64,000 nucleotides of DNA. Origin: Macrostomum hystrix. Lineage: Eukaryota; Animalia; Platyhelminthes. This document shows, piece after piece, positions 24,208 through 64,000 of the stretch (the stretch's first letter is position 1; the number at the start of each line of letters is the position of its first letter). Made by a program: the position numbers and the translations under genes. The stretch spans positions 558,001 through 622,000 of the forward strand of contig CATNEN010000029.1 in the NCBI GenBank assembly GCA_950097015.1. Direction: 5' to 3'. The notes beneath the pieces were generated by a model. That model did no database searches. It saw only the letters and a program-made list of their open reading frames with translations, and was not told the DNA's origin.

Positions 24208-24482
24208 CATCCCACCCTCCTGGTGAGAGGTGGGGATATTTTATCAATAAATATGAAACGCGGAGCGCCGCAGGAGCGCAACCCGCCCCGACGATAGCTC
24301 ATTAGTTTTAACGAATTAAAAAAAGTTATCTCAAAGATTAATTTGCTTTGATTACGACGCTATCAGAGTAGAAGAGATAGATAAAGTTAGGTAGATACGT
24401 AAGAACTCTCTTTAGTGCGAGCCATTGGAGAACGAATCAGGTGTAGTAATCTTTATAGAAAGAATCCGTGAATTTAACCTGA

Positions 24483-24887
24483 ATACCGCTAGACCAAAAG
24501 ATAAGATCACGGAGGATAAAGATTACAACTGGAATACAACTCATTGAGGAGCAGCGAAACCTTCGCCGCGGTAGACATCAACAGGAAAGGCCATTGGAAG
24601 TGCAAGGACAAGGAGAGGAGCATCAACAGCATGAACAGCAGCTGGACGAAAGTGAGGATAATGATGGAGAACAGGCGAACGGGAATGACGAACAAGGTGA
24701 ACAAGTGGATGAGCATGAAGAACATGATGAAGAGCAGTCGGATGAGACTGAGCCACAACAGTACGAGCTACTGAGCAGCCGATCCTGCAGAAAGCGGCGA
24801 CGGAATCAGCCGGAGCGACTATTCAGGGAGACACGCAAACTTCGTACAGGACCAACTAGAATGATCCTTCGGTCACATAATCGCTGA
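24483..24887 (+). other. ATG-less open frame (134 codons) with an acidic E/D/Q tract and basic C-terminus; candidate terminal exon of a plus-strand element gene
   Basis: Open from the TGA at 24480-24482 to the stop at 24887. An AG at 24491-24492 is phase-compatible with the donor at 23054, but its polypyrimidine tract is weak. Confidence 0.3.
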
Positions 24888-25267
24888 TGGAATTGTGGCG
24901 ATGCTTGATGGTTGACTAGTATGTTTCTTCTAATGATAGTCATGCGGAAGAAGAAGCCTGGATTTTCTCGTTTGCGTGTGAAAGTGTAAAAGTCAGAGAC
25001 AGAAATCTGTTGCTGTTGACTAGAAATTGCGCGGTTGTTGTCCCTTCATGTTTGGGGCTTTAACTTTTCATACTCGTAGTCACTAATAAAGCTTATATCA
25101 CATATTACAGCATACGTCATGTTCTGGTAATCCGGTGTCTTGCTATATTGCACTACGTATCGACTCAGCACATTATGTGTCACTGTATTCTGTATCATTT
25201 ATGCTTGTGCATTATGCAAAGCGAACCCTATGAACCGATTTGTACAGTCAGTGCAAACCGGCGTTAG

Positions 25268-34500: not shown

Positions 34501-35709
34501 GAGGAGAAGAACCGCCTGCTGTCCTCGCTGATCGACGCCGAGCAGCGCATCATGCTGTGGGAGAAGAAGATTCAGCTGGCCCAGGAGACTCGCGCGGCTG
34601 TGGACTCGGACGTTGGCCAGGCCGAGATCAAGGCGATGCGCTCTGAGATTCACCGCATGGAGGTCCGGCTCGGCCAGCTGATGCGCCAGCAGGAGCAGCT
34701 CATCCAGGAGATGGAGAAGTCGGTCAGCAGGCGGGACACGATCGCCACGCGCGGCGAGGCCCAGGCGCGCGCCAAGGTCAAGGTCGTCACCAAGGGCGCC
34801 ATGCAAAGGGAGCTGAACGAGCTCAGAAAGAGAATTAAACAGACCATCAAGGTGAGCTAATTTTGAAACTTTTGAGACTTTTGAGACTTTGGGACTTTTA
34901 AGTTGAATTAATTACTTACTTTGCAGACCACAAACGAATGCGACGAAGACATTGAGGACCTGCGTCAGAAGCAGTCGCTGCTTGAAGGCGAAATTAGCGA
35001 GCGGAACGAGCGCTGCAACCAGCTGCAACAGGAGGCCGACCGGCTCAATGACACCCTGGCCAGCCTCACCGACATGAAACAGATGGTGAGGCCGCCAGGC
35101 TGGAATACCTGGGAGCAAGATAGAAGTTCCTGGAATCAATGATGGATTAAGGAAGATATTATTGGGATCAATAACGGATTAAGGAAGATTTTACTGGGAT
35201 CAATCATGTATTAAGGAAGATTTTACTGGGATCAATGATGGATTAAGGAAGATTTTACTGGGATCCATGACGGATTAAGGAAGATATTACTGAGAGTCTG
35301 AGATCAATCATAGATTAAGAAAGATATTACTGAGATCAATCATTGATTAAGGAAGATATTTCTGGGATCAATCATAGATTAAGGAAGATATTATTGGGAT
35401 CCATGATGGATTCATAAGCCGCTCCTGTGTGATTTCTGCAACGATGCCACCCACCCCCTCCGCCATCAGCAAATCTTTGATCTCCAGTCGCGCCAGCAGA
35501 CGGCCCGCTACTACCAGCAAGTTCGCGAAGGCAAGTACAAGCCGCTGTACAAGGAGACCGCCCGCCTAGACGAAGAACGCCAGAAACAGCAGGAGAGGAC
35601 CCAGGCGCTCAGCCTGGTGATCGAGCGAGTGACCCGCGACCATCCGCAGGTGCTTCGTGCCATCGGACCCTGTCGCAGTATGATCAACACTCGGCTGGGC
35701 TTTGCCTGA
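31503..35709 (+). CDS. CCDC40: Coiled-coil domain-containing protein 40 (axonemal 96-nm ruler subunit), 7 exons, 921 aa
   Basis: Exons 31503-31703, 31891-31974, 32058-32137, 32761-33433, 33523-34851, 34927-35085 and 35470-35709 join in phase (2,766 nt). Acidic N-terminus, LIVLDPDH|PLM motif, long coiled coil, QRIMLWEKKIQLAQETR and a C-terminal VREGKY...HPQ segment typical of CCDC40. Confidence 0.93.
32319..32686 (+). mobile_element. Full-length tRNA-derived SINE in CCDC40 intron 3
   Basis: A box TGGCAGAGCGG (32327-32337), B box GTTCGATTC (32372-32380), (ATT)n tail (32666-32685), flanking direct repeat AACCAAACCAAACCAAA at 32302-32318 and 32687-32703. Confidence 0.85.
35130..35410. repeat. 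About 32-bp minisatellite in CCDC40 intron 6
   Basis: GGGATCAATGATGGATTAAGGAAGATTTTACT-like units. Confidence 0.85.
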
Positions 35710-37829: not shown

Positions 37830-39090
37830 GTTAAACTGGAATTCTGAGAACTGGGATTCAGCGAAGAGGGATTCAGAGAATTGGGATTCAGAGAATTTGG
37901 ATGCAGAGAATTAGGATTCAGAAGTATAACTATAATTAGAGAAATGAGATTCGAAGAAACGGGATTCGGAGAAATGGGATTTGGAGAAATTGGATTCGGA
38001 GAAATGAGATTCGGAGAAATGGGGATTCAGCTAAGTGGAATTCGGAGAAACGGGATTCAGAGAGATGGGATTCGGAGAAACGGGATTCGAAGCAATCGGA
38101 TTCGAAGAAACGGGATTCGGAGAAATGGGATTTGGAGAAATTGGATTCGGAGAAATGAGATTCGGAGAAATGGGGATTCAGCTAAGTGGAATTCGGAGAA
38201 ACGGGATTCAGAGAGATGGGATTCGGAGAAACGGGATTCGAAGCAATGGGATACGGAGAAATGAAAGTCGGAGAAATAGAATCAGGAGAAATGGGATTCG
38301 GAGAAATGGGATTCGGAGAAATGGGATTCGGAGAAATGGGATTCGGAGCAATGGGATTCGGAGAAACGGGATTCGAAGCAATGGGATTCGGAGAAACGGG
38401 ATTCGGAGCAATGTGATTCGGAGAAATGAAAGTCGGAGAAATGGAATCAGGAGAAATGGGATTCAGAGAAATGGGATTCGGAGAAATGGGATTCGGAGAA
38501 ATGGGATTCGGAGAAATGGGCTTCGGAGAAATGGGATTCGGAGAAATGAGACTTGGCAAATGAGAATCGGAGAAATAGGAATCGGAGAAGTGGGATTCAG
38601 AGAAATTGGATTCGGAGAAACGGGATTCGGAGAAATGGGATTCGGAGAAATGGGATTCGGAGAAATGGGATTCGGAGAAATGGGATTCGGAGAAATGAGA
38701 TTTGGCAAATGAGAATCGGAGAAATAGGAATCGGAGAAGTGGGATTCAGAGAAATTGGATTCGGAGAAACGGGATTCGGAGAAATGGGCTTCGGAGAAAT
38801 GGGATTCGGAGAAATGAGATTTGGCAAATGAGAATCGGAGAAATAGGAATCGGAGAAGTGGGATTCAGAGAAATTGGATTCGGAGAAACGGGATTCGGAG
38901 AAATGGGATTCGGAGAAATGGGATTCGGAGAAATGGGATTCGGAGAAATGGGATTCGGAGAAATGGGATTCGGAGAAATGGGATTCGGAGAAATGAGATT
39001 TGGCAAATGAGAATCGGAGAAATAGGAATCGGAGAAGTGGGATTCAGAGAAATTGGATTCGGAGAAACGGGATTCGGAGAAATTGGATTT
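37830..39090. repeat. 15-bp minisatellite (GGGATTCGGAGAAAT)n with higher-order blocks
   Basis: 15-bp period. A variant block starting GAGA(T/C)TTGGCAAATGAGAATCGG recurs near 38548, 38697, 38816 and 38995. Confidence 0.93.
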
Positions 39091-42361: not shown

Positions 42362-45300
42362 TCAGATCTCGTCGATGGTCTGTCCGGCAGACGGGTTCCG
42401 GCTCCTGGTTCGGCTGCTCTTCTGTCTGATGATCTGCAGCATGATCAGCTTGCGATTGCCGGCACGCTCGCCAAGGCCAACAAGGCAGCGCTTGTCGCGG
42501 CTGAGGATGACCTTGAAGATGTCGATGTTGGAGGTGAACCAGCACAGCTGGGAGCCGTCGCCCAGCTTCCAAACCCGGATGGAGCCGTCCAGACTACCGG
42601 AGGCCAGAATCTCAGAGTCGGCGCTGATGCTGACAGATTGTACCTGTAAATTAGGTAGGTAGATGGATTTTAAAGATTAGAAATTTACCGCCATCAAAAT
42701 TGATTCAATTTGGCTGACCATTGCAGCTGCGGCTCGTGTTTTGTATGTGAGAGCTGGGAATTGAAGTTTATTGTGATTTTTATCACTAAATTTATCTGCC
42801 GAAATAGTTCACTAAAATTTCTGCTTTGATGGATTTATGCTAGGAATTCTATAGATAGCATCTTAGAGTGCATCTAAGGATGCTATATTTAGAGCTCCTT
42901 GATTTGTCTTGATTTAAATGCTCAAACTGCGAGTTTGAAAATACCTTTAGAATGTAATAAAAGGAGCTTATAAAGGAGAATATAATAAATTTAATACTAT
43001 TTTATATTGAGATTAGACACTAAGATAGAATATTAAGGTTACAGATAATGAGATAAGACATTTTAGAAATTACGTTAGAGACACTGAGATGAGAGACACT
43101 GAGATGAGAGACACTGAGATGAGAGACACTGAGATGAGAGACACTGAGATGAGAGACACTGAGATGAGAGACACTGAGATGAGAGACACTGAGATGAGAG
43201 ACACTGAGATGAGAGACACTGAGATGAGAGACACTGAGATGAGAGACACTGAGATGAGAGACACTGAGATGAGAGACACTGAGATGAGAGACACTGAGAT
43301 GAGAGACACTGAGATGAGAGACACTGAGATGAGAGACACTGAGATGAGAGACACTGAGATGAGAGACACTGAGATGAGAGACACTGAGATGAGAGACACT
43401 GAGATGAGAGACACTGAGATGAGAGACACTGAGATGAAAGACACTGAGATGAGAGACACTGAGATGAAAGACACTGAGATGAGAGACACTGAGATGAGAG
43501 ACACTGAGATGAGAGACACTGAGATGAGAGACACTGAGATGAGAGACACTGAGATGAGAGACACTGAGATGAGAGACACTGAGATGAGAGACACTGAGAT
43601 GAGAGACACTGAGATTAGGATTGGATTAGAGACTCACATCCTCAGTGTGGCCCTCCAGAGTGTACATGAGGCTCTCGCTGGTCATGTCCCAGACTTTCAC
43701 AAGCGCGTCGGAGCCGCCGCTGGCAAACAATGTGCCGTCAATGGACCAGCAGGCGGCTTTGATTGGCGATCGGTGCGGCAGGTGGCCGTTCGGCAGCACG
43801 ATCGGACGCTCCACCAGGCCGGTGCCCAGGGCCCACACCAGCAGCTCGCCCTTGGCTGTGCCCGTGACAGCCTCGCCGGCGCCCAGCTCCGTGCAGCCGA
43901 CCACCGCGTCGAAGTCAACCTGCAGCGGCAGGGTGCCAGCCGGCAGACTCAGGTCGTACACCAAGTAGGTGGCTGTGCCAGTTGCCGTGTTGGGAAAGCC
44001 GGCCACAACGAATTGGTCCTCGCGGCTCACTCTCAGGTAGGTGACCACCTCGGAGAGGCCATGCACTGCTGGCAGAGGGAGTGTCCTTGTCGAGCAGTTG
44101 CAAGCAATGTCCCACACTAGCAGGTCGCAGGCCTTCTCATCGCCGTCCACCGATGCAACAACAGCCTGAACGCGGGTTTTTGGTGTGGAGCCTCGAATCA
44201 ATCGTGCTTGGAACTTCCGACAGTCTCAAAACTAGACTGAAAAACTGACACACAAAAAACTCTAACAGACTCAAACCCCAACAGACACAACCCCCGAACC
44301 GACTCACAACCCCCCAACAGACTCACAACCACCCAACAGACTCACAACCCGCCAACAGACTCACAAGCCCCCAACAGACTCACAACCCCCCAACAGACTT
44401 ACAACCCCCCAACAGACTCACAAGCCCCCAACAGACTCACAACCCCCCAACAGACTCACAACCCCCCAACAGACTCACAACCCCCCAACAGACTCACAAC
44501 CCCCCAACAGACTCACAACCCCCCAACAGACTCACAACCCCCCAACAGACTCACAACCCCCAACAGACTCACAACCCCCCAACAGACTCACAACCCCCAA
44601 CCGCACAGAGTGTGCCTGTAGCTGGCGCAGAACTCACGTGAGTTCCGCTGCGGTTCACGGCCACAGTGGAGCAGAAAACATCGGCCTGATTCGCGACCTC
44701 TCGCCCGTGAGCAAAGTCCCACATCTGCAGCCGGTGCCGCCCGCTGGCCTCGTCAAGCACCAGCCCCAGCAGCACCGAATCCTCGCTGGCCAGGTGAATC
44801 TCAGTGCAGCCGACGTCATGGCCGTCCATGACTTTGATAAGGTCGCCGGTTTCGCAGTCCCACACCTGGGCGGGTCCGGCCGCGTTGCCAGTGACAACGT
44901 ATTTGCTGTTCTGTGTTATCAGGGCGCAGTCCACCTGTTCAAAGCGAATTTCACCGGTTCAAAGTTTTAGCATCAGTTAGGAGAATATCTGACGGAGGCC
45001 TGTGGGTACCGGTACATCATTTGTCGACCAGCAGTGGACGCCCAGTGTTCCAGTCCACGAAATACTCCCCTGGAGTGTTCCAGTTGAGTCGGGAATCGAA
45101 CCCCCGACCTTAAAGTCGTGACTCCGACGCTCTAACCACAGCCTCCCTGTCAACAATTGGGGTCCATTCGGGACAAAGACTCCTGAACACACACTCACAC
45201 AGGTGCGTATGTATCTGGCATGAGTTTTTTATTTTCAGGTGCAGTGTGCACTCACCTTGATATTCTCGCTAAGGAATACATTCTCCTGGGCACGAGCCCC

Positions 45301-45765: not shown

Positions 45766-46729
45766 TTCTATCGCTTAAATTTCTCAGGCCTCTCTAAGAT
45801 AATTGTTTTTTTCAACGGAAGAAAGCGAAAAGTTTCAGCAATCAAGTCTCCTTGATCTATTCGCCAGTCTCGCGAATGATTGAGTTCGCAGCTGGCCAAT
45901 CGACGAGATTAGCTGGTCGAAATGAAGGATTTGCTGTAACCTTTTATCTATCCGCTGGAAGTGAACTAATATAAGTGAGTGAATGAGGAATAGAGAAACG
46001 GAGAGACACAGAGCAGTGTGGGCCACCGAGTCCAACTGGAAATCTGAGAATAATTTTATTCTCTTAGCTTTTCGAACTGGGCAAAGTTTTATACTAGGGC
46101 CTAGCTGGTGTGTGTGCCAGCACCAACTCACTAAGCATTCTAAACTGGGTCCACACCCTTCCCAAACAACACTATCCATGTGTTTCAGAGCACCGCAGCG
46201 TGCCTTGCACACATGCGCACAAATATAGACCCCATTGTTGCTCTTGTTCATGTATACTGCCCACTATACGAGCTAGATAGGATCCACTATGATATGTCTG
46301 ACCCTATGCTCCCATTGCTCCAGTCGTCTCTGAACTCCCAGTGTTTTTCAGTGGCTGCAAGTAAAACATATGATTGATTGCTGATATTCGTTGAAAAACA
46401 ATTTCCTATTTCTTTTTCTCTCCTGCTTGCTGCATTGAAGTACAGAAGTACATACGACCGTAGACAACATCATGTACTTTTTAGAAAATGTAAAGCTACC
46501 CATGCATGGAGTACTTTCACTTTTTCAACTTTATTGACCATGGATTAATTCGAATTTCATTTAAAAAACTGTCTATTAATTAACTGCGCGTTATCATATA
46601 ATGCTATGATGGCTTGCTTGTAAATCATATATAAAACTTGAAATAAATCTTCAATACATGTCATTTACAGCAGTTGCTCTAGTATGGCACTTTCTTGAAC
46701 TGCCATCTGAATTTCACAATGACCTACTT

Positions 46730-48610
46730 CCTGATCAACTAATGAATACTTCCTGACCCCAACTAATGACTAATCTCTGACAAATTAATGACTACTCCCT
46801 GACCAACTAATGAGTACTCTCTGACTAACTAATGACTACCTTCTGACCAACAAATCACTTCTCTCTGACTAACTAATGTCTACTCTCTGACTAACTAATG
46901 ACTACTCTCTGACTAACTAATGACTACTCTCTGACTAACTAATGACTACCTTCTGACCAACAAATCACTTCTCTCTGACTAACTAATGACTACCTTCTGA
47001 CCAACAAATCACTTCTCTCTGACTAACTAATGACTACCTTCTGACCAACAAATCACTTCTCTCTGACTAACTAATGTCTACTCTCTGACTAACTAATGAC
47101 TACTCTCTGACTAACAAATGACTACTCTCTGACTAACTAATGTCTACTCTCTGACTAACTAATGACTACTCTCTGACTAACTAATGACTACTCTCTGACT
47201 AACTAATGTCTAATCTCTGACTAACTAATGATTACTCTCTGACTAACTAATGTCTAATCTCTGACGAACTAATGACTACTCTCTGACTAACTAATGACTA
47301 CTCTCTGACTAACTAATGTCTACTCTCTGACTAACTAATGACTACTCTCTGACTAACTAATGTCTACTCTCTGACTAACTAATGTCTAATCTCTGACTAA
47401 CTAATCACTACTCTCTGACTAACTAATGTCTACTTTCTGACTAACTAATCACTGCTCTCTGACTAACTAATGACTACTCTCTGACTAACTAATGTCTACT
47501 CTCTGACTAACTAATGACTACTCTCTGACTAACTAATGTCTACTTTCTGACTAACTAATCACTACTCTCTGACTAACTAATCACTACTCTCTGACTAACT
47601 AATCACTACTCTCTGACTAACTAATGTCTACTCTCTGACTAACTAATGACTACTCTCTGACTAACTAATGTCTACTTTCTGACTAACTAATCACTACTCT
47701 CTGACTAACTAATCACTGCTCTCTGACTAACTAATGACTACTCTCTGACTAACTAATCACTACTCTCTGACTAACTAATGACTACTCTCTGACTAACTAA
47801 ACACTGCTCTCTGACTAACTAATCACTACTCTCTGACTAACTAATCACTACTCTCTGACTAACTAATCACTACTCTCTGACTAACTAATGTCTACTCTCT
47901 GACTAACTAATGTCTACTCTCTGACTAACTAATCACTTCTCTCTGACTAACTAATGTCTACTCTCTGACTAACTAATGTCTACTCTCTGACTAACTAATC
48001 ACTATTCTCTGACTAACTAATCACTACTCTCTGACTAACTAATTACTACTCTCTGACTAACTAATCACTACTCTCTGACTAACAAATGACTACTCTCTGA
48101 CTAACTAATGTCTACTCTCTGACTAACTAATGACTACTCTCTGACTAACTAATCACTACTCTCTGACTAACTAATGACTACTCTCTGACTAACTAATCAC
48201 TGCTCTCTGACTAACTAATGACTACTCTCTGACTAACAAATGACTACTCTCTGACTAACTAATGACTACTCTCTGACTAACAAATGACTACTCTCTGACT
48301 AACAAATGACTACTCTCTGACTAACTAATGACTACTCTCTGACTAACTAATGACTACTCTCTGACTAACAAATGACTACTCTCTGACTAACTAATGACTA
48401 CTCTCTGACTAACTAATGACTACTCTCTGACTAATTAATGACTACTCTCTGACTAACTAATGACTACTCTCTGACTAACAAATGACTACTCTCTGACTAA
48501 CTAATGACTACTCTCTGACTAACAAATGACTACTCTCTGACTAACAAATGACTACTCTCTGACTAACAAATGACTACTCTCTGACTAATTAATGACTACT
48601 TCCTGACCCA
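46730..48610. repeat. 22-bp satellite (GACTACTCTCTGACTAACTAAT)n, about 85 copies
   Basis: Direct periodicity with variant units; degenerate edges. Confidence 0.96.
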
Positions 48611-49274
48611 ACTAAGGAGCACTCTCTGAAATTTTGGGAAAGGCAACAAGATTGACTAGAAAACAACAAAATCCAGTATCGAAAATAAGAGGAAACAGAT
48701 AGAATTGCGTAATTACACAGTTGCACAGATTGATCTACTAATAGATGCCACAACAATCAGTATGAAAGTGCCTATGTTTATCGTCAAGCCACCTTCAATT
48801 TTAGAATCGCAAGCAAAGTTAATATGAATCCCAGGTCCATATAAACTCCATTTAAAGACACAAATTTGACGCCCTTTGAATAATATGTTTCTGCGCTTGC
48901 GCGGCACAACAGATAGGTCTCATAAAGTACTCACTAGCACCCTCACGGTGCCAAATTGACTCCGGGTATTGGCAGACACCTGAGCTATTGTCGTGTGCTG
49001 AGAGCACGACGACGATAGGCCAGCAGCATTTGCTGGAGCTCTGACTAGTGATACAGCGTACAAATGCTGCTGCTGCTGCTGCTGCTGCTTTAGATTTTTA
49101 TAGTGAAGGTGTTGCTTTGCTTTAGATATTTTGTTTTCATAGAAAAATTTGTGTCGCTTTCTCGTAATATATATCATGTTACATTTTTTGAAGAAATTTA
49201 TTTGTACAGTATATGACAACACTGAAGAGTTACTGTCTGTAGAATCCCTGTTTGTAGAGTTATTTCAGGAAAAT

Positions 49275-51499: not shown

Positions 51500-52084
51500 A
51501 CCCGCCTCATTTCCTCCTCAGTAGTCATAACTTTCTCTCCCACCGACTGCACCCTCTACCTCATTTTCTCTCCTCCATTCAGCTCCATCCACCACCTCAT
51601 TTTTTCTCCTCCATTCAGCTGCACCCACCACCTCATTTTCTCTCCGGTTGCACCCACCACCTCATTTTCTCTCCTCCATTCAGCCGTACCCAGCACCTCA
51701 TTTTTTCTCCGGTTGCACCCACCACCTCATTTCCTCTCCTCCATTCAGCTGCACCCACCACCTCATTTTCTCTCCTCCATTCAGCTGCACCCACCACCTC
51801 ATTTTCTCTCCTCCATTCAGCTGCAACCATCACCTCATTTTCTCTCCTCCATTCAGCCGTACCCAGCACCTCATTTTTTCTCCTCCATTCAGCTGCGCCC
51901 ACCACCTCATTTTCTCTCCGGTTGCACCCACCACCTCATTTTCTCTCCTCCATTCAGCCGTACCCAGCACCTCATTTTTTCTCCTGTTGCACCCACCACC
52001 TCATTTTCTCTCCTCCATTCAGCTGCACCCACCACCTCATTTTCTCTCCTCCATTCAGATGCACCCACCACCTCATTTTCTCTC
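51500..52084. repeat. About 36-bp pyrimidine-rich minisatellite; target site of the LTR element
   Basis: GCACCCACCACCTCATTTTCTCTCCTCCATTCAGCT units, interrupted at 52085 by the LTR start TGTAGAG. Confidence 0.88.
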
Positions 52085-52415
52085 TGTAGAGAGTTGTAAA
52101 ATACGTTTTTACTTAACGCGCTACTTAAAGTAATGTCACAAGGAAACCTTAGCTATAATGTTTAATCTATTTTTAGGAATGAGTCATGCGCTATTTTTAG
52201 AAACAAGTCATGTGACATGAAATCGGAGAACTGGTTCTCGACAGCTGTATTTACTTGAAGCAAACATGACTCATCGGTTTCTGCACCTGTATTTACACAA
52301 TATTCCAAATATGGTAATGTTCACCTGAAAACCCCCCAAAACGCAGCTGATCAAACAAGTCTGACCTCACTGTGCAAACATGTATGCCCAATGTAAACAC
52401 CCGGTAGTAGAACCG

Positions 52416-53849
52416 TCAGTCGCTTACGCTGGCCTCATCTGGGCCAGTGCCATGAGCATCCAGAAAAACCTGGAGGCGCTTTATAGGGTGCAGGGCAGAG
52501 CCTGTCGCATGACGCTGGGCGCCCCACCCTCCACTCCCTTTGAAGGCATGAACGCTTTCCTCAACGCTACACCCATTGACATTTTTGTTAAGGGGGAAGC
52601 GGCAAAGTCCACCCGTCGTCTCCTTGATGCGGGTGTATCCTTCCAGAATTCGCGAGCCTTCTCGAAGCGCTCCCTTCTGCCCCACTCTGACCTCTGCCTG
52701 AAAACTCTGGGCGAGTGCGGAGGGCTCACCATCCTTTCGGACGGGGCCCCGGCCACTTTACTCCGGAGCCACAGGTACAAAGTCAGCATCTTCCCTCGTA
52801 ATGAGGTAAAGGACTGCTGGGATGACCCCGCAGTCCACTGTTACACTGACGGCTCCCTGATGAACGGTAAATCGGGATTCGGGGTGTGCGTCGCCTCGGG
52901 TGGCGAGGTCCTCTGGACCCACTCCCAACACTGTGGCAAGAGCTCAAGCGTTTTCCAAAACGAAATGCTCGCCATCAGCTTCTGTGCGGCTGAGCTGCGC
53001 CAGAGGCAGCTGGCTGGTCGGAGGATCTTTTTTCACTCCGACAGTCAAGCAGCCCTCAAGGCCCTCAGTCGCTGCACCTCTCGCTCCAGAACCACCTTGG
53101 ACTGCAACAACCAGTTAAACGGTTTGGCGCAGTCTAACAAGGTGGAGCTGATGTGGATCCCTGGGCACGCCGGGCTCACAGGGAATGAGATGGCGGACGA
53201 GCTTGCAAAGGCTGGAGCAGCCAGCTCCCTGATGGGCCCGGGCCCGGAATCCCCGATCCCCGCCTCCGTTGTCAACTCCAGCATCAACCACTGGATGGAG
53301 ACCCAGCACCGGAGGAGGTGGTCCAGCACCCTGAACTGTCGCCAGTCCAGGGCTGCGGTGCCAACCCCCTCTAGTAACCTGCGTAAGGCCTTACTCAGGC
53401 TAAACCGCAGAGACCTGAGAGCAGTCACCATGGCCCTTTCGGGACATGGCTGCTTCACCAGACACCGCTACCTCCAAGGCCACGTGCCTGAGGAAACGTG
53501 TCCTTTCTGCTGCTCCGGCCGTGAAAACGCCGAGCATTTCATTTGCCACTGCCCGGCCTTCACCCGGGCTAGGCTAAAACACCTCGGGCCGGCACCGACT
53601 CTTGCCGAAGCCTGCTCGCCCGAGAACATCCCTCAGCTCGCCCACTTCCTCCGGGATACCGGCCGAGCTGATTTCTTCCCAGCCTATGGCGAGGAAGATC
53701 GCGCGGCGGAACCGACCGACGGACCACCCTGAGCGGCACCGCCTCGCTGGAGGCCGTCTGGCTGCCAGGGGTTAGCGATATGGGCGGCAACAGCCGCCTC
53801 CTCGCTGCGTCCGTCATGGAGGCCCCCTGCCGCTAAGTCAAGTAAGTCA
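52416..53849 (+). mobile_element. 5'-truncated non-LTR retrotransposon with RNase H (I-group, Loa/Lian-like) inside the 5' LTR
   Basis: Absent from the 3' LTR and flanked by AGAACCG at 52409-52415 and 53850-53856. The ORF has the post-RT segment, RNase H ([40 protein letters not shown]) and a CPFC..HFICHC zinc motif. Tail is TAAGTCAAG x2. Confidence 0.92.
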
Positions 53850-53876
53850 AGAACCGGTTTTTCCCCAAAATTTTAC

Positions 53877-53884
53877 TATAAATA
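53877..53884 (+). promoter_or_regulatory. Candidate LTR TATA box
   Basis: TATAAATA inside the LTR, also present in the 3' LTR; function inferred from position only. Confidence 0.45.
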
Positions 53885-54574
53885 CAAGCGAAAATCCGAG
53901 CTAAAAATTCAGACTCGGAGCGGTCCACCGGACTTCAAAACACCTTACGAAGAAGAGGACTCATCTCTGAGGGAAAGACAAGTGGTAAGCGCTTTATTAG
54001 ACAGAGTTATTTATTGCTAGCAATAGTTGTTGAATTGAACTAAGTTTACGAGAGCCACATATCGTCGATACATTTGAGAAAGGCCTCCTTGTTTCCTAGG
54101 ATACATTCCTAGAGGATTATTGATTGATTTGAATTGAGTTATCCGTTATCTTTCGGAGGTAACGAAGAAGACGCCCTTCAGGAGGACCTACTAGAGATAT
54201 ACAAGAGAGATTTCAATTGTTCACTAGGGCGCACGTTTCTATTGTGAATTCCGAGCTCGAGGAAACCGAAAAGTAATCTGATTCGCTCTCGTCATTTATT
54301 GGCCAACAGACAAACTCAAGCAGCTACCAGGAAGACAAAGAAGACAAGACTACAAAGACTCAAGAAGCAACAGAACCAATACTTCACGGTCGACCAGCAC
54401 AAGAAGAAGAACCGCCGGCTATCGAAAACCAAAGACTACAAACAACTCACTATCAAGGAAGAAGAAGAAACTGCAGTAAGTGTCACGTGACTGTTATAAA
54501 TTCCTAGGCAATTGTTCCCCATTGTCTAGAAGTGGGAGTTTCGTGTGTCTGATCAACACGCAAAACTCTTCAAC

Positions 54575-54585
54575 TGGTGATCTCG
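54575..54585 (+). other. Candidate primer-binding site (tRNA-Trp-like with two G-U pairs)
   Basis: TGGTGATCTCG two nt after the inferred LTR end; compare the canonical Trp PBS TGGTGACCCCG. Confidence 0.5.
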
Positions 54586-55108
54586 CCCAGGCCCTGCAAT
54601 CAAGCCCAGGCCGAGATACAAAACCATTTTTTGCGGTACCACTTTCGAATTGTTTTAACATAAAAAAGAAAAAAAAAAATTTTTTGCAACTTATTAATTT
54701 TGCTTTTGATTTAAAATAATCCACCGTTTCATAAAAATTTTGTTGCGTCATACCTCTGAAAAAATTTTGCTGTCCCTACCGGATATTGTTGCACATAAGC
54801 CACACGCGTCACTTCGCTCTATTGTTTGCACATCTGGGAATCGCGCGACTGAACTCACCGGCTCACATTTCAATAACCCCTTTTCAGCGTTAAAAGCGGC
54901 ACACGTTCCCTGCTTTGTATAAATTTTTCTCCCTTGTCCTGAGTAAATAATTCCTCTGTGTAAACCATTTTTCAATTTGCTGATACACACGCACACGCAC
55001 ACACACACACACTTTTTATTCACACTAAATCTTGTCAGAGAAGTCAATCTGGACGAACCCTTGAACATCGATCCAGAACTTGAATTATTTCCGTTCCCAG
55101 TTGCGAAT

Positions 55109-58100
55109 ATGGCACGAAGAAACTATCAGGTCCATCGTGACATTAAGGAAACGGTCGGAATGTATACAATGGATAAAGATTTCAACACATTCATTGATCA
55201 CTTTGATTTGGTCTCACGCGAATATGGATTACAGAATGCAGAGAAAGCACTCCTCCTACCTCCACTGTTACAAGGAACAGCTCGAGAAATCTATGGAAAA
55301 TTGACAGCTGCAGTACAACAAGATTATCAAGCTCTAGTTACCCAACTGAGAGCACAATTCGCACGGTGTGGAACAAACAGATCGGTACTCCTTCATAAAC
55401 TTCATAATCGAAAAATGAGTCCCACTGAGAGTTTTCTCACCTTTGTTGATGACATCCGTAAGATCATCAAAGCATTACATCAGCCTCCACCATTGGATCA
55501 AGGAGCGCAACCTATAGGACCTGCCGAATCAGCTGCACGAGAAAGACAACGTCTTGAAGACCGGGAACAAAGTTTAATACTTCATGTGATTAACAACGCA
55601 CAGCCTACTTTGCGAGATAGACTGCTGAGAGAAACTATTAACACAGAGGAACAATTGCTCCGTTGTGGAATGCAATGGGAAGCTAGCGCACCTCTTATGA
55701 CTACTCATAATAGTGACACGACACAACTAGCAGAACAATTAAGCAAACTCATGCAGCAACACCAAACTTCTGCTATTGTACCACAACAGCAGAGATATTC
55801 CTATCCACAACCACAACAGAGATACTTGCACACATCAACTTGTTACACCTGTGGAAGGATCGGTCATTATGCTAGAGACTGCAGATCACGTGGCAACCCA
55901 CGTTCATACAATGACAATAGACAGACCAATTGTACTCATCCTCCAAGACAGCCTTCAAACCGTAATTGGACAAATAGTCGACAACAAGATAGCAGACCAT
56001 CTAATGCCATCGTACCTTATCGTCAACAAAGAAATCCTCCACCTCCAAGACAACCAACGCAAGTCCGTCGACAATACACTCAAGCTATTGAGCCTGAATA
56101 CACTCAAACTATTGAACCAAAGTTCAAGATTGAAGATCTTATGCCAGACTTTTCTGTCAATGTTCTTGATGAACTTGAGAAACAAAAGAAGGAGCAAGAA
56201 ATCAATGACCTTCATCTGGACAACGATGGTGCAGCCTATATTACTATAATCGAAAGCGACCATTCGAAAGAGCCGCCCATGCCACAAAAGGAAACAGAGG
56301 ATACAGAAGAAAACAATTTTTACTACAACAATGAGTCAACACAGGAAATACAGAACGACAACACAAGCAACGACAGCAGCTGCATAATGGGTTCATTGTT
56401 TGAAGAATTATCGATTCCCTCGCCAAAAGAAAGTGTTGCCTTCAACACCTGTCAACACATTGAACGAAAACAATTACAACAACAAATCAAAGGATTATTC
56501 AAAATTCCAACGATGAGTGATCTTTCAAAAATTCTGCAAAACAAAGAAGGCATAGATGAATTGTCCACATCCACAGAAAGGAATAATGAGGACCACAGTG
56601 CGAAAAATTCACACAACACGTCTGAAGAAAACATCAGCATGCTACAAATTTTAGTCGATGACATCGACTTGACAGAGACACCGCCTTCGACACCCAAGTA
56701 CAAACCTGATCCCGAATACGAAAACATAACCCATGTCAATTCATCTGAAGGACAGAATGGACACGATAAAGCAGTGAATACCGAATCATACTACTCGAAG
56801 CACGATAGATCTTCTCAGACTAAAAGTGACTACAATACGTCGATGGAAAATGATGATGATCATATCTATGATGAACCAACAACGTGGATCGACATGAGAA
56901 CGGATACTACAAGTACCGTACTGCAAACTCTCAATACACCATTAACATTCAATATGAAACAACCAACCTGGTATAACCAACAAACCAGACCATCAGGATG
57001 CAACAACCCATGGCACTTTTCTATGCGCCTTACTCCACCAATTGGAGAGACAGAAGACCAACGATATTCAATAAACACCAATAAACCGACACCACCAACC
57101 AAAGTGAAGAAAAAGAAACGGCACATACTGATAAGATTGTTGTTTTCAGCCATCGTGATGTTGCTTCTCCCGACAGTTGTACCATCTTCAGTGCCCATGA
57201 TTTGCCCTACTGATGCCAACATCCAACCAGTCATCTACAAAATACCAACGGAAATCAAGTGCAGTTACTTTAAAACTAATCAAACAAAACCTATTCCATT
57301 AACGATCGATGTCTACAAAGCAAACACAAAGAAACATAGACAATATGGTATTATCTGTTTCCGAGATAAACATGAACTAGAAAAGGTTTGGTACATCCAA
57401 TGGAATCGCATCCGATTCTGGCAAACAGCACTGCCTGTCACACAAGAAGAATGCCTCCAGTGGAACCAAACATTATTTTCTAAAGATGGAGAACTTCATG
57501 CCGATGAGAAACTTGGAAACTCTCAACTCTTCAGGACCAAGAACAGTGCGAACGGTAGATATGTCCATTGGAACGAATACATATGGCCACGTTACACCAC
57601 GACAAACAGTTACTTGATCCGGAAAGTCTTGTTTTACCACAATCCATTTGAAAACATGGAATCTCTACAATTATCAATGGAAGATTGCAAGTACAACACA
57701 GGGTTCTCCGAAACAGCAAAACTCTGGAACGAAGCAGTATGGCAAGTACCGCTGGCTCCAACATATCATCAAAATTACAAATGGCAAATTGAACATCGAC
57801 ACAGCCCATACTATGAGATTACAGAATACCAACGACAGTACTTCGTTGCATGGAAAGTTGAACCGAATATTGATTGTAAATTCCAGAAGTACCATACAAT
57901 AAAAGGAAGTCTACTGTCAAATACCTTCCTTGCGAGTACGTCGGATTTTGCCCTAACTTTTCCAAAAAAAGCCAAGTATCTCCAAATTAACTGCAAGGAG
58001 AACTCTAAAAAACTTCTAGTGTCTGAACAAGAGATACCGCTCGAATTACGTGATATGGATGAGGATACCTTTATGAGACTGGTCAATGGTACTTATTCAA

Positions 58101-61100
58101 CAAGAACCAACACAGCTCGGAAAAAGAGAGAACTACAAAGACCATCAATGGTTTCTGCACGACTACTAGCGGCAAAACTCGCAGCAATGGAACATAACCT
58201 ACATAAAGAACTAAACTACTTGCACAAATCACTGATCCAACTGACTTGTAGAATGCACGAAACTGCACTTAACTATGCACGACAAAACTATTATGTCAAT
58301 CCAACGTCTACATTCAGAAAAATCACAGGGATTCAAGATGCTTTAGCTATCCCCATCTCTGGCCATCTGTTGATTTACAAATGTGTGCCACTGCATCATT
58401 TTAATATCTTGCCATCAAACACATCAACTACGTGCTACGATAAACCCAGAATCGAAGCTTACTACAATGGGAAACGAATTCAAGGATTTCTAGATACTGT
58501 GCACAATATAATTGTTGGAACTGCAATCCCGAGACCCTGCACTGACGCAGCCAACTATTTCAACATTAATAATAAACTACACAAGGTCTCAACAACTGGG
58601 CACATTACAAACATCACTGGTATGCAAGCTATTATCGACGAAACATACGAATTATCGGACCTACAGCTCAAGATAAATAAGACCACCTATAAACCATTTG
58701 GTGACATCAAACTTGACGAAATCACACCAGGATGGACAATTAATGATTTTCTTCAAGTTTTTATTGCCCAACGACAGATGATGAAAAAGCTCTTTACCCA
58801 ACACAACCAACAGGACAAAGAACAATCCTTTTCGACAGGATTCATCATACATAACGCAATAGGATCCTTTTGGTCGAATAGCCTTCTCGATTTACTCCAA
58901 GGAAAAGGAAGTTACTATCAGGGATTCATCTTCTCCAGTGCATGCATTGTATGGATTCACCTTGCACTAATGATCTTTATCACAGTAGTACGATGTGTAG
59001 CACGAGCCTATCCAGCAAAACAACGGATTTTCCAAATTGACAAACAACAAGAAACTACTACACTCAACGAAAAAATTGAAGAAACTCTACTACAAGATCA
59101 AAGAAAACAATTATTGCCAACAGCACCAGAACCAGAAGCATCAAATATTTACCCAAAAATTGAAATCAGAACAGCGAGACCACCGCCGAAATCTCCTCCT
59201 CTACCAACGGATCCAAAATGGCCAGCAAATTACATTTGCACCTTGCAAGCCAATATGGGTAGAGCGATGGCTCAAGTATTTATAAACAACATGCCCAGTA
59301 AAGCACTTCTCGACTCAGGAAGTTCAATCACAGTCATCACAAAAAGACTCTACGACAAATTGCAACTTCATATGCGACCTTCTTCAATCGCTGTCGCTGG
59401 AGCCGGAGGACATGCACTTAATATCCTAGGACAAGTGAATATATCACTTAAACTTGCAAACAAGCAACTTCTGGTACAAGCATTTGTTATTGACCATCTT
59501 CCAAGCCAAGATGTTATTATTGGAATCGACACATTTCGGCAAATGAATCTACCATTAACATTTGATTTTAACAAACAAACATTCAAACTGGACAATGTGG
59601 AACATCCTTTAGTCAGCCAAGTTCACCTTCAACCAAAAGTACATATTAAACAAGATGTCTTCATACAGCCGGAAAGTACATGTTGGGTTAAAGCATATCT
59701 CGCCAATCATGACGATGTCGAAGAAGCTATGATATTTGAACCAAGAAAGAAGATCCTCACAACAAAAGAAGTTTTAATACCAACGGCTCTAGTCCTTATC
59801 ACAAAGGAAAGAAACATCCCAGTACAAATTATAAATCCAAATCAACATCCAGTAAAAATTTATGCAGGAACATGCATGGGACATCTCAACACACAAGCTT
59901 CGGTAATGCTCATCCAACCAGACACAACAACAAAAATGTCTAAACAAAAATTCCTACAACAAATTGATCTTTCTCAAAGTCCAATCACTGAAGGACAAAA
60001 AACACAAGTTAAAGATCTATTGTGGAAGTATAACGACGTCTTCTGTCATCACGATTACGACATCGGATGTGCTCGAGATATCAAGCAAAAAATTGAACTG
60101 CTACCTCATCAAGAACCAATCCAATGTAAACCATATCCAGTCGCTAAACACCTACAGCAACACTTCGATGAAATCATAGAAAAAATGCTTAAAGCAGGAA
60201 TCATAAAACGTACCGTCTCAGCTTATTCTTCACCTTGCCTTCTTGTCGAAAAGAAAGAAACAAACGAAAGACGACTCGTCTGTGATTTCCGAGTCCTAAA
60301 TAAGTACATTCCCACCGATCAACAAAGTCTACCAAAAATCTCAGAACTGCTAGCACGACTCAATACGGCGACACTCTTCACCGTATTTGACCTACGACAT
60401 GGATTCTGGCAAATCGAACTTGAAGAAGAATCAAAACAATACACTGCCTTCAAAACTTACAAAGGAGAAGTTTTCGCGTATCAAAGAAGTCCAATGGGAA
60501 TCTCCAACTCACCAGCAACAATGAGCCGTCTTACAGCCTATATGCTAGCCGGATGTACAAATCTGCTTCACTATGTTGATGATATTCTTGCCTTTGGAAA
60601 TAACTTTGAACAACTAGTAAAAGTCATGGAACAAGCTCTCTTCTTACTCCGACAACAAGGTCTAAAACTGCAACCAACAAAATGTAAATTCTGCAGAGAT
60701 TCGGTCCGATATCTTGGACATCACGTCTCATCACGAGGCATATCACCTGACCCAAATAACGTCGACAAGGTCAAGAAGTTCCCGAAACCTACGTCAATTA
60801 CCAAACTGCAGTCATTCCTTGGACTAGCACAATATTTCCGAAAATTCCTACCTAACTTTGCACAAACGGCTAAACCATTGTACGAACTACTAAAAATTCC
60901 AAAGTGGAAAGAAGACAACTGGAAAGCGGAACAACAGGAAAGTTTCGATAGAATCAAACAACAACTAACTAGTGATGCTCTTCTCAAACACCCGAACTTC
61001 CACAAACCTTTTATCATAGAAACAGACGCATCAGGAAGCGGATTAGGAGCCGTACTACTTCAGGAAATGGAACCAAAGAAAGAAAAACCGATTGCTTACA

Positions 61101-61648
61101 TCAGCAGAGCGCTAAGACCAAACGAAACGAAATGGTCAGCCACTGAACGAGAACTACTAGCTGTTCTATTTGCTCTTCGACAATTCCATTACTACATCTA
61201 TGGATCACCACTGCCAACTATCATTCGCACAGATCATGCACCGCTGACTCACGTTGTTAAAACAAAAGGACAGACGAACAATAGACTCATCCGAATGGTC
61301 CTCAAAATACAGGACTACAACTTTCACCTGGTTTACAAACCAGGGCCAATGAATAAAGCCGCTGATGCACTGTCCAGAACATACGAGATCAATGCAGTTC
61401 ATCCAATTCCAACCATAAAAGACTTGTTGAAAGCACAACAAGACGATTCCTTTTACAAAGCCATACAAGAAGATACAGAAGAAACGGAAAATGAACTTAC
61501 AAAAATCGAAAAACAATTCTTACGAAAACACAAAAATAGTCTAGTTTTCAGAGAACTCGCACTCTACTGGGTGTACAACAATATTCCGCGACTGTACCCT
61601 ACACATTCCGTTCAGCGATCCTACACGAACTCCATGATAGTCCATTAG
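55109..61648 (+). CDS. Gag-Env-Pol polyprotein (Gag, Zn knuckle, acidic linker, glycoprotein, protease, RT, RNase H)
   Basis: Single stop-free frame. CCHC CYTCGRIGHYARDC 55841-55882; hydrophobic segment from 57122; RKKR 58118-58129; TM 58922-about 58998; LLDSGS (D at 59312); YVDD 60572; IIETDAS (D at 61025). Confidence 0.93.
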   Translation: MARRNYQVHRDIKETVGMYTMDKDFNTFIDHFDLVSREYGLQNAEKALLLPPLLQGTAREIYGKLTAAVQQDYQALVTQLRAQFARCGTNRSVLLHKLHNRKMSPTESFLTFVDDIRKIIKALHQPPPLDQGAQPIGPAESAARERQRLEDREQSLILHVINNAQPTLRDRLLRETINTEEQLLRCGMQWEASAPLMTTHNSDTTQLAEQLSKLMQQHQTSAIVPQQQRYSYPQPQQRYLHTSTCYTCGRIGHYARDCRSRGNPRSYNDNRQTNCTHPPRQPSNRNWTNSRQQDSRPSNAIVPYRQQRNPPPPRQPTQVRRQYTQAIEPEYTQTIEPKFKIEDLMPDFSVNVLDELEKQKKEQEINDLHLDNDGAAYITIIESDHSKEPPMPQKETEDTEENNFYYNNESTQEIQNDNTSNDSSCIMGSLFEELSIPSPKESVAFNTCQHIERKQLQQQIKGLFKIPTMSDLSKILQNKEGIDELSTSTERNNEDHSAKNSHNTSEENISMLQILVDDIDLTETPPSTPKYKPDPEYENITHVNSSEGQNGHDKAVNTESYYSKHDRSSQTKSDYNTSMENDDDHIYDEPTTWIDMRTDTTSTVLQTLNTPLTFNMKQPTWYNQQTRPSGCNNPWHFSMRLTPPIGETEDQRYSINTNKPTPPTKVKKKKRHILIRLLFSAIVMLLLPTVVPSSVPMICPTDANIQPVIYKIPTEIKCSYFKTNQTKPIPLTIDVYKANTKKHRQYGIICFRDKHELEKVWYIQWNRIRFWQTALPVTQEECLQWNQTLFSKDGELHADEKLGNSQLFRTKNSANGRYVHWNEYIWPRYTTTNSYLIRKVLFYHNPFENMESLQLSMEDCKYNTGFSETAKLWNEAVWQVPLAPTYHQNYKWQIEHRHSPYYEITEYQRQYFVAWKVEPNIDCKFQKYHTIKGSLLSNTFLASTSDFALTFPKKAKYLQINCKENSKKLLVSEQEIPLELRDMDEDTFMRLVNGTYSTRTNTARKKRELQRPSMVSARLLAAKLAAMEHNLHKELNYLHKSLIQLTCRMHETALNYARQNYYVNPTSTFRKITGIQDALAIPISGHLLIYKCVPLHHFNILPSNTSTTCYDKPRIEAYYNGKRIQGFLDTVHNIIVGTAIPRPCTDAANYFNINNKLHKVSTTGHITNITGMQAIIDETYELSDLQLKINKTTYKPFGDIKLDEITPGWTINDFLQVFIAQRQMMKKLFTQHNQQDKEQSFSTGFIIHNAIGSFWSNSLLDLLQGKGSYYQGFIFSSACIVWIHLALMIFITVVRCVARAYPAKQRIFQIDKQQETTTLNEKIEETLLQDQRKQLLPTAPEPEASNIYPKIEIRTARPPPKSPPLPTDPKWPANYICTLQANMGRAMAQVFINNMPSKALLDSGSSITVITKRLYDKLQLHMRPSSIAVAGAGGHALNILGQVNISLKLANKQLLVQAFVIDHLPSQDVIIGIDTFRQMNLPLTFDFNKQTFKLDNVEHPLVSQVHLQPKVHIKQDVFIQPESTCWVKAYLANHDDVEEAMIFEPRKKILTTKEVLIPTALVLITKERNIPVQIINPNQHPVKIYAGTCMGHLNTQASVMLIQPDTTTKMSKQKFLQQIDLSQSPITEGQKTQVKDLLWKYNDVFCHHDYDIGCARDIKQKIELLPHQEPIQCKPYPVAKHLQQHFDEIIEKMLKAGIIKRTVSAYSSPCLLVEKKETNERRLVCDFRVLNKYIPTDQQSLPKISELLARLNTATLFTVFDLRHGFWQIELEEESKQYTAFKTYKGEVFAYQRSPMGISNSPATMSRLTAYMLAGCTNLLHYVDDILAFGNNFEQLVKVMEQALFLLRQQGLKLQPTKCKFCRDSVRYLGHHVSSRGISPDPNNVDKVKKFPKPTSITKLQSFLGLAQYFRKFLPNFAQTAKPLYELLKIPKWKEDNWKAEQQESFDRIKQQLTSDALLKHPNFHKPFIIETDASGSGLGAVLLQEMEPKKEKPIAYISRALRPNETKWSATERELLAVLFALRQFHYYIYGSPLPTIIRTDHAPLTHVVKTKGQTNNRLIRMVLKIQDYNFHLVYKPGPMNKAADALSRTYEINAVHPIPTIKDLLKAQQDDSFYKAIQEDTEETENELTKIEKQFLRKHKNSLVFRELALYWVYNNIPRLYPTHSVQRSYTNSMIVH
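57122..59000 (+). other. Env-like class III (herpesvirus gB-like) glycoprotein domain within the polyprotein
   Basis: Signal/anchor segment, Cys-rich ectodomain with about 6 N-x-S/T sequons, furin-type RKKR, gB-like NP...G..L.I.KC and CY.KP.....G.L...N.I......PC motifs, C-terminal TM. Confidence 0.8.
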
Positions 61649-62784
61649 CAGGACACTTATCCGCCAAGAAAACAATCCAGAGAGTCGCCCAGTTCTATTT
61701 TTGGCCAACAATGAATTTAGACATTCGCAAGTACTGCACACAATGTCACTCATGTGCTTCAACAAAAATCGGAAGACGACAAAAACCTGAATTCCAATCA
61801 GTGCCGAAGACAACTACATGGGACACAGTGTCAATTGACATTACCGGACCACTACCACCGGCTCGACAACACTCTATCGACTACAACTACATTCTTACAG
61901 CCTTGGATGTTTTTTCGAAATTCGCCGTTGCCATTCCGATACCTGACATCACAGCGACAACAGTTGCAATGGCCTTCTATAATGAAATTATCTGCAAATT
62001 CGGAACTCCTAAGACGCTAACATCTGACAATGGTACACAGTTCACATCGCAATTATTTCAACAGGCCGCCAAACTACTGAATATTCAACAAATATTCACT
62101 TCGACATATAATCCAAAAGCAAACCTCGTCGAAAGATTTCACAGAAATCTACATGAAATGCTGACACACTTTGTTTACAAACAACCTGAAGATTGGATTA
62201 TTTACATACAATCCGTGACAATGGCCTACAATAGCGCAGTTCATCGTTCAACAGAGAACACACCATTCTTTCTGATGTTCTCTCGAGACTTTCAACCACC
62301 GAATCTATTAGTTCAGAAATTACTGCCATCTCAATATGTTGACACGCCGACGACGCTACAAAAGTTCACTTCTCAATTACACCTAGCATGGCAAATTGCA
62401 AAACATAATCTCGACAACCAATCTACCGTACCTACAACAAGTAATCATGCTTCTACCTTACAAGTAGGAGATATCGTCTACCTACACTACCCGGCACAGC
62501 ATACGCACAAGCATGCTTTCAAATACAAAGGACCTTTCCGTGTAACAGGACTGATATCCGCGACAACAGCACGCCTTGCAAATATCCAGGATCCACATCA
62601 ACCTCAGTTCTACGTTCACATTCAACGTTTAAAACGCATCACTAACGACACTACATTCCTTCCAACGTTACAGAATCCAGACCACACAAAAACAACAAAC
62701 AAGCACATTGCAACAGCACATGCCGAGACACAAACCACAAACACACCACCAAATACTCATACGTATAACCTACGCCCGCGTTAA
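61594..62784 (+). CDS. Integrase (HHCC, DDE, GPF), out of frame with upstream pol
   Basis: The frame VPYTFRSAILHELHDSPLAGH...CTQCHSC, VSIDITGP, TSDNGTQF, LVERFHR, YKGPFRV is shifted by -1 relative to pol at about 61592-61594. Confidence 0.9.
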   Translation, partial: VPYTFRSAILHELHDSPLAGHLSAKKTIQRVAQFYFWPTMNLDIRKYCTQCHSCASTKIGRRQKPEFQSVPKTTTWDTVSIDITGPLPPARQHSIDYNYILTALDVFSKFAVAIPIPDITATTVAMAFYNEIICKFGTPKTLTSDNGTQFTSQLFQQAAKLLNIQQIFTSTYNPKANLVERFHRNLHEMLTHFVYKQPEDWIIYIQSVTMAYNSAVHRSTENTPFFLMFSRDFQPPNLLVQKLLPSQYVDTPTTLQKFTSQLHLAWQIAKHNLDNQSTVPTTSNHASTLQVGDIVYLHYPAQHTHKHAFKYKGPFRVTGLISATTARLANIQDPHQPQFYVHIQRLKRITNDTTFLPTLQNPDHTKTTNKHIATAHAETQTTNTPPNTHTYNLRPR

Positions 62785-62915: not shown

Positions 62916-63134
62916 ATGGACTGTCCTGTCTGTCTTGAAGAATTCTCATGTAAACTACCATGTATATGTGTCAATAAACACCATGTTTGCGGTTCTTGCT
63001 TAAGCCTCGCACACTACAAAAAACCATTAAAAAACTGTCCTTTGTGCCGTGGAAATCTCCGCCAATGTATGATATGTAACTCATGGCGAACTGTACAATA
63101 CTGTCAATACGTGATGTTATCTTATTATTGTTAA
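62916..63134 (+). CDS. Stand-alone C3HC4 RING-finger ORF (72 aa) between integrase and 3' LTR
   Basis: ACCATGG Kozak context. C-x2-C-x11-C-x3-H-x2-C-x2-C-x12-C-x2-C (CPVC...CVNKHHVCGSC...CPLC) plus an extra CMIC. Confidence 0.75.
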   Translation: MDCPVCLEEFSCKLPCICVNKHHVCGSCLSLAHYKKPLKNCPLCRGNLRQCMICNSWRTVQYCQYVMLSYYC

Positions 63135-63186: not shown

Positions 63187-63201
63187 AAAAAAGGGAGATA
63201 T
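63187..63201 (+). other. Polypurine tract
   Basis: AAAAAAGGGAGATAT immediately before the 3' LTR TG. Confidence 0.85.
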
Positions 63202-64000
63202 TGTAGAGAGTTGTAAAATACGTTTTTACTTAACGCGCTACTTAAAGTAATGTCACAAGGAAACCTTAGCTATAATGTTTAATCTATTTTTAGGAATGAG
63301 TCATGCGCTATTTTTAGAAACAAGTCATGTGACATGAAATCGGAGAACTGGTTCTCGACAGCTGTATTTACTTGAAGCAAACATGACTCATCGGTTTCTG
63401 CACCTGTATTTACACAATATTCCAAATATGGTAATGTTCACCTGAAAACCCCCCAAAACGCAGCTGATCAAACAAGTCTGACCTCACTGTGCAAACATGT
63501 ATGCCCAATGTAAACACCCGGTAGTAGAACCGGTTTTTCCCCAAAATTTTACTATAAATACAAGCGAAAATCCGAGCTAAAAATTCAGACTCGGAGCGGT
63601 CCACCGGACTTCAAAACACCTTACGAAGAAGAGGACTCATCTCTGAGGGAAAGACAAGTGGTAAGCGCTTTATTAGACAGAGTTATTTATTGCTAGCAAT
63701 AGTTGTTGAATTGAACTAAGTTTACGAGAGCCACATATCGTCGATACATTTGAGAAAGGCCTCCTTGTTTCCTAGGATACATTCCTAGAGGATTATTGAT
63801 TGATTTGAATTGAGTTATCCGTTATCTTTCGGAGGTAACGAAGAAGACGCCCTTCAGGAGGACCTACTAGAGATATACAAGAGAGATTTCAATTGTTCAC
63901 TAGGGCGCACGTTTCTATTGTGAATTCCGAGCTCGAGGAAACCGAAAAGTAATCTGATTCGCTCTCGTCATTTATTGGCCAACAGACAAACTCAAGCAGC
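63202..64000 (+). repeat. 3' LTR (first 799 bp; remainder outside the window)
   Basis: No differences from the 5' LTR were seen by eye once the LINE is removed. Confidence 0.95.

Follow-up and report, generated by a model that had tools for sequence, protein, structure and literature searches.

A young Ty3/gypsy element encoding a predicted class III envelope protein in frame between Gag and Pol

Our analyses of a 64,000-nucleotide stretch of flatworm DNA (hereafter the window) have identified a recent Ty3/gypsy insertion in which Gag, a class III envelope protein (Env), protease, RT and RNase H are encoded in one frame, and which likely produces a single membrane-threaded polyprotein, from which the capsid, fusogen and enzymes of enveloped particles would be released by cleavage, a reading to which we assign a probability of about 0.8. 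The single-frame GAG-ENV-POL layout in the window is real and confirmed, and on sequence comparison it is well supported that the element belongs to a new family of the published GAG-ENV-POL, gB-type Ty3/gypsy kind, close to elements of Macrostomum lignano. The nearest named relatives are all from this species, which is also the source of the polyproteins P0001 (A0A0M4HFM6), P0199 (A0A267ESE6) and P0122 (A0A267GKR7).

An earlier note on this DNA had described one stop-free frame running from Gag (CCHC) through a linker and a membrane glycoprotein to protease, RT and RNase H, and Pfam, hydropathy and the stop counts agree with this description; its length estimate of ~2,560 likewise corresponds to the span 55,109–62,784 (~2,560 codons). 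We add to that description a pair of LTRs, a primer site, an insertion within the 5' LTR and a small ORF on the 3' side (Table 1). Within the 2,179-aa protein the Pfam domains follow the order zf-CCHC (residues 244–259), protease (1385–1483), RT (1714–1873) and RNase H (1938–2070), and the complete Ty3/gypsy Pol order (protease-RT-RNase H-integrase) is present with gypsy-type domains. The same Pfam set is carried by the 120 RT-RNase H matches listed; there is one CCHC, and no BEL/Pao peptidase family is among the domains listed. The CCHC knuckle and the protease are separated by ~1,120 residues, including ~580 that carry 11 cysteines, N-glycosylation sequons and an RKKR motif at 1004–1007, and this ectodomain is flanked by exactly two segments that are hydrophobic by hydropathy (residues 673–691 and 1273–1291). 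The 615 codons of the env part contain no stops, compared with 24 and 38 in the other two forward-strand frames, and a stop-free run of this length has a chance of ~2e-17 under its own base composition.

Table 1. Positions of the features of the element and its surroundings, counted from the first letter of the window.
Feature	Position	Strand	Basis or remark
Host BRE1-like E3 ligase gene, part	31,486–35,085	+	PF08647, E 1.6e-12; five GT..AG introns by joints in runs X4 and X5
Satellite, 36-bp units, surrounding start of 5' LTR	51,547–52,084
5' LTR (TG...CA; 1,047 bp minus insertion)	52,085–54,572	+	Matches 3' LTR; ends and flanks read
Non-LTR retrotransposon piece within 5' LTR, 5'-truncated (RNase H, short tandem 3' tail)	52,416–53,849	+	RNase_H, E 1e-14
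Intron-like GT..AG stretch in LTR-derived leader	53,985–54,309	+	Joint in runs X4 and X5 only
Primer-binding site, 12 nt, 2 bp past LTR end	54,575–54,586	+
Main ORF	55,109–61,648	+	From ATG, 2,179 aa; enclosing stop-free frame 54,947–61,648
Gag, one CCHC knuckle (aa 1–262)	55,109–55,894	+	zf-CCHC (Pfam)
Acidic/polar linker, poorly conserved (aa 263–665)	55,895–57,103	+	Composition; low hydrophobicity
Basic cluster and internal signal-peptide-like segment (aa 666–692)	57,104–57,184	+	Hydropathy; predicted cleavage
Envelope ectodomain, predicted class III (gB/Monjiviricetes-type), furin-type site	57,185–58,924	+	PF24664; fold matches
Transmembrane anchor (aa 1273–1295)	58,925–58,993	+	Hydropathy; kept in P0001, P0199 and P0122
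Envelope tail/protease spacer, PTAP and YPxI late-domain-like motifs	58,994–59,233	+	Motif reading; putative function
Protease, spacer, RT (YVDD), RNase H	59,234–61,648	+	Pfam and motifs
Integrase (H2C2, rve, GPF motif), other frame	61,540–62,784	+	Pfam Integrase_H2C2, rve
72-aa cysteine-rich RING-like ORF between pol and 3' LTR	62,916–63,134	+	Weak concordant matches
Polypurine tract	63,187–63,198	+	Sequence
3' LTR, running past window end	63,202–64,000	+	Expected end ~64,248

Four of the eight sequencing runs that contain the stretch were examined; the eight derive from one organism and two studies, and none is on record as RNA. Contigs from all four cover each of 30 bins of the element and bridge its junctions with few differences. 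Over the BRE1-like gene, run X1 is continuous at a depth of 66–76, whereas runs X4 and X5 pass over the five GT..AG introns and do not cover intergenic DNA; on this one comparison, X4 and X5 behave as RNA. The interior of the element is ~430 deep in X1, or ~6 times the depth over the host gene, which is a rough hint rather than a copy number and a rough sign that the element is present in several copies.

The hallmarks of a Ty3/gypsy insertion, viz. TG...CA LTR ends, a primer site and a polypurine tract, are present, the 3' LTR end and target-site duplication falling beyond the window. The two LTRs are 100% identical over 331 and 475 bp (799 bp comparable in all), indicating that the insertion is young. 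The non-LTR piece (1,434 bp), which is bordered by a 7-bp duplication and absent from the 3' LTR, has since entered the 5' LTR, after the insertion of the LTR element itself; its depth in X1 is ~90 times that of the LTR element's interior, and in the DNA-like runs as a group it is also far deeper than this interior. A TATAAA lies at 53,877, just 3' of this piece, and the GT..AG joint further along the leader has a donor GTAAG and an acceptor CAG, with a short side of 29 letters. There is no ATG in the 799 nt (54,310–55,108) preceding that of Gag, as would suit a single leader from which one frame is translated. The heat-shock element pattern, a lead from PMC12801592 in the part of that source covered, did not occur in the 799 bp of the 3' LTR within the window.

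The frame is broken before the integrase, near 61,590. The window's integrase shares 73% identity with that of P0001, which is continuous, and in three of the four runs the contigs show an indel here relative to the window, so that the break is probably peculiar to this copy or to its assembly. A programmed frameshift was rejected on the same grounds, the relatives being continuous there. The placement of the integrase after a single frameshift in the earlier note thus stands as regards the second frame, but not as a part of the element's design, the runs and relatives pointing to a lesion of the copy or an error of assembly. Under the intactness rule of Chary and Hayashi, by which full RT and integrase lie in continuous ORFs, this copy fails, being broken before its integrase; in view of the run contigs with the indel and the continuous relatives, the failure concerns the copy and not the family. 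With its broken integrase frame and interrupted 5' LTR, this copy is probably not autonomous.

The ~620-aa middle region had been taken for a glycoprotein or fusogen, and both profile and fold matches bear this out. Pfam on the whole polyprotein missed it; queried alone, the env region matched PF24664 (Monjiviricetes fusion) at 27.6 bits, barely above the cut-off of 27, and the first match in Atlas was to the same family (0.90, with low recognition, a lead only). An AlphaFold2 model, built from 46 env-matching sequences accepted by the aligner, has a mean pLDDT of 77.9. All of the Foldseek matches listed for this model against the PDB are herpesvirus gB (best E 3.6e-19), and the best of its matches among viral models are G proteins of nyamiviruses and of rhabdo-like type, entomopoxvirus proteins and gB (lowest E 7.5e-25, nyamivirus G). 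The TM-scores are low (0.19–0.44 overall and 0.21–0.44 to gB), so that the gB match is to be read domain by domain, and as a global match it is weakened; such scores would be expected if matching domains were arranged differently in different conformations. A PDB sequence search with env returned nothing significant, and a metagenome scan with env gave 151 pattern matches and no relatives. Judged from profile and model, the middle region is a predicted class III envelope fusion protein, whose gB/class III ectodomain sits between a signal-like segment and a membrane anchor that are both identified by hydropathy alone. The earlier note had allowed that this region might have no glycoprotein homology, or that sibling copies might lack it or show it decaying; homology is found by profile and by fold, and the relatives carry env intact and in frame.

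In P0001 and P0199, env through integrase form one protein that is 64–65% identical to the window over Env-Pol. In P0002, Gag (155/254 residues identical to the window) runs in frame into env through a linker about half as long as the window's, and the net charge just before the signal-like segment is +7 in both. P0122 (2,852 aa) has CCHC, env, protease, RT, RNase H and integrase in one protein, and two further full-length members of the cluster were found. Among 71 env homologues, many of them fragments, a CCHC precedes env in the same protein in 20, RT follows env in eight, both hold for four, and RT precedes env in none. Against P0199, the window is identical at 360 of 579 ectodomain residues (62%), 24 of 76 in the tail and 194 of 240 in RT; against P0122 the ectodomain identity is 162/569 (28%). 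All 11 ectodomain cysteines are nevertheless kept in P0199 and in P0122, and the furin-type site is also conserved in the closest relative, protein-level evidence that suggests purifying selection on env.

These comparisons bear on two other accounts of the envelope. The first is a one-off capture, in which a viral glycoprotein gene came to lie in frame in a single copy that is now decaying, or the join is an artefact of assembly; the lesions that the window copy carries, its integrase break and LTR insertion, count in its favour. It is refuted by independent in-frame relatives, which share the order at 28–62% envelope identity, and the contigs of the four runs bridge the junctions; we give it next to no probability. 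The second holds that Env is kept for an intracellular role, such as anchoring assembly on ER or vesicle membranes, with no infectious extracellular particles. It accords with the mostly vertical inheritance reported for such elements (PMC13524379, in the parts covered), but the conservation of the whole ectodomain, its cysteines and the furin-type site in the closest relative goes beyond the needs of a simple anchor, and we regard it as rather improbable.

In an RT-RNase H tree (FastTree; 126 rows consisting of database matches only, with no named reference clades, and with 11 near-duplicate M. lignano proteins left out), the window joins P0001/P0199 (support 100) and then P0122/P0202 (98). 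The env-before-pol proteins are scattered over several RT clades of this tree, their 12 rows needing four changes, at least two of which are forced by strong branches; this agrees with the published view that such elements are not monophyletic (PMC13524379, in the parts covered). P0044 (2,685 aa) has the same order, and pairwise comparison of its envelope with that of the window gave nothing significant. P0041 (2,644 aa) has Gag-Pol followed by a weak rhabdovirus fusion-domain match (E 0.017) and a C-terminal segment, and is possibly a gag-pol-env single-frame element. P0129, P0131 and P0140 are polyproteins that contain env and carry, behind or around it, at least two protease-like motifs or domains; a metagenome scan with P0129 yielded one locus (L001), a decayed gypsy element lacking any ORF of envelope size.

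The polyprotein reading would proceed as follows. Translation would start at the first ATG past the ATG-free leader, with Gag remaining cytosolic. The ectodomain would be directed into the ER lumen by the basic cluster and internal signal, with cuts by signal peptidase and later furin, and the anchor would halt transfer, so that protease, RT and integrase would be cytosolic again, like Gag. Their release would fall to the element's own protease, and the PTAP/YPxL motifs left on the Env tail would recruit ESCRT for budding. Having exactly two hydrophobic segments around the ectodomain makes for a workable topology, with Gag and Pol cytosolic and Env luminal, and the polyproteins of flaviviruses and alphaviruses have a comparable membrane-threaded topology. 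Among 17 homologues picked by hand (a set with no control), 14 have a net positive charge over the 15 residues that precede the signal-like segment.

With a single frame, Gag, Env and Pol should be made in equal amounts, an unusual arrangement that counts against the polyprotein model. The frame could instead be continuous while spliced or internally deleted RNAs supply most of the Gag, the full polyprotein being a minor product. Contigs of the RNA-like runs X4 and X5 both contain a joint from 57,598 to 62,503. It continues in phase into the final 93 codons of the integrase frame and retains Gag, the signal and the first part of Env. The joint has AC..AT ends with 3-nt microhomology and not splice ends, however, and is therefore more likely a deleted genomic copy; moreover, the chance of its being in frame is 1 in 3, it comes from one study, and it is not listed in the DNA-like runs X1 and X2. 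No splice that skips Env occurs among the run joints listed (one joint not shown). We consider this alternative possible and on the whole unlikely. For the polyprotein model itself, the env-pol cover in X4 and X5 is shallow and the contigs give no strand or level; with DNA traces possible from a multi-copy element, full-length transcription is only suggested.

PTAP/YPxL-type motifs are known to bind ESCRT, and the tail that carries them in the window (PTAP and YPxI) has YPxI, PTAP and PPxY in another order in P0199 and PSAP and YPxL in P0122. A spacer could be delimited in 20 of the 74 proteins examined; P[TS]AP occurs in four of these, YPx[LI] in four and PPxY in two, leaving 16 of the 20 with no P[TS]AP. 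The four P[TS]AP compare with 0.25 expected from shuffles and with two matches in 30,087 other residues; three of the four are one clade that includes the window, and most of the distant relatives have no late-domain-like motifs. Our literature search found no work describing late domains in the envelopes of retrotransposons, a negative that does not prove there is none. The RING-like ORF matched zf-RING_2 at E 0.011 (below the cut-off) and the BRCA1 RING at E 0.003; its Atlas neighbours are small viral RING proteins (score 0.88–0.93, low recognition), and its single-sequence fold is unusable (pLDDT 44.8). We tentatively propose, as an idea that will more probably fail than hold, that in the Macrostomum clade the budding signal has moved from Gag to the Env tail: the polyprotein would tether Gag via the Env signal peptide, the PTAP/YPxL motifs of the tail would recruit ESCRT, the RING protein would supply ubiquitin, and the in-frame deleted RNA would supply extra membrane-tethered Gag. 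If true, assembly in this laboratory-tractable group of flatworms would be driven by the envelope, along a route that differs from those of retroviruses and insect errantiviruses, and it is this budding hypothesis that is the part worth testing.

Elsewhere in the window, two introns of the BRE1-like gene are short (89 and 75 bp) and are located inside a 476-codon open frame or at its end, and the gene's 623-bp intron holds a very high-copy short interspersed repeat (32,320–32,655), whose depth in X1 exceeds the single-copy value by a factor of tens of thousands. At 19,457–29,839, nested long inverted repeats with arms of 617–1,286 bp (98–100% complementary) and a 10-bp tandem array inside surround a 3.3-kb core, a structure like that of a foldback element or DNA transposon; the one ORF from it that was tested gave no Pfam match. 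Numerous distinct minisatellites with units of 15–23 bp (4,448–7,063; 16,227–18,072; 37,837–39,089; 43,077–43,615; 46,718–48,629) give rise to long spurious open frames.

The novelty of the order that had earlier been implied does not hold, since GAG-ENV-POL elements are already published. In the parts of the source covered, Ty3/gypsy elements of this layout with a gB-type Env are described from Nematoda, Bryozoa and Platyhelminthes, and are stated not to be monophyletic and to be mostly vertically inherited (Chary and Hayashi, eLife 2026, PMC13524379). Its supplements include a 16-copy M. lignano element, Platyhelminthes_Rhabditophora_Mlig_errantivirus_2, which is the sole entry in the table covered with the same 12-nt primer site as the window (PMC13524379). 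As described there, this entry shares with the window a Ty3/gypsy Pol, a gB-type Env between Gag and Pol, LTRs, the primer site and a flatworm lineage, but it differs in an LTR of ~863 bp against 1,047 bp; it may be a member of the P0199 or of the P0122 family. The main text, in the passages covered, makes no mention of a single ORF or polyprotein, late domains, RING or budding (PMC13524379). The architecture itself hence adds little as a discovery, the layout being published, with no biochemical study in those passages. The Env-tail motifs, the RING-like ORF and the in-frame deleted form are possibly undescribed extras, and a family that is young and multi-copy, in a host likely to be of Macrostomum type, would allow product ratios from one frame and cell-to-cell movement to be observed.

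The nematode elements studied by Sacco et al. in 2022 (NERV) reportedly carry gag, env, pro and pol in one continuous ORF, with an env resembling that of Nyamiviridae and with small additional ORFs, and both the single frame and the accessory ORF may already be included in that work. Chary and Hayashi credit to it the flipped ENV-POL order in nematodes, which is like that of the window (PMC13524379, in the parts covered); the window's top viral fold match is a nyamivirus G, and the host phylum differs. The M. lignano polyproteins P0001, P0199 and P0122 share both order and frame with the window and form one RT clade with it, but they represent a distinct family (RT ~82% identical), have no break before the integrase and are annotated only as hypothetical or retrovirus-related. 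The errantiviruses gypsy and ZAM of Drosophila combine a Ty3/gypsy Pol with an envelope gene, as the window does, and express this env by splicing. Unlike the window, however, their env is F-type and lies in a separate ORF after pol (PMC13524379, in the parts covered).
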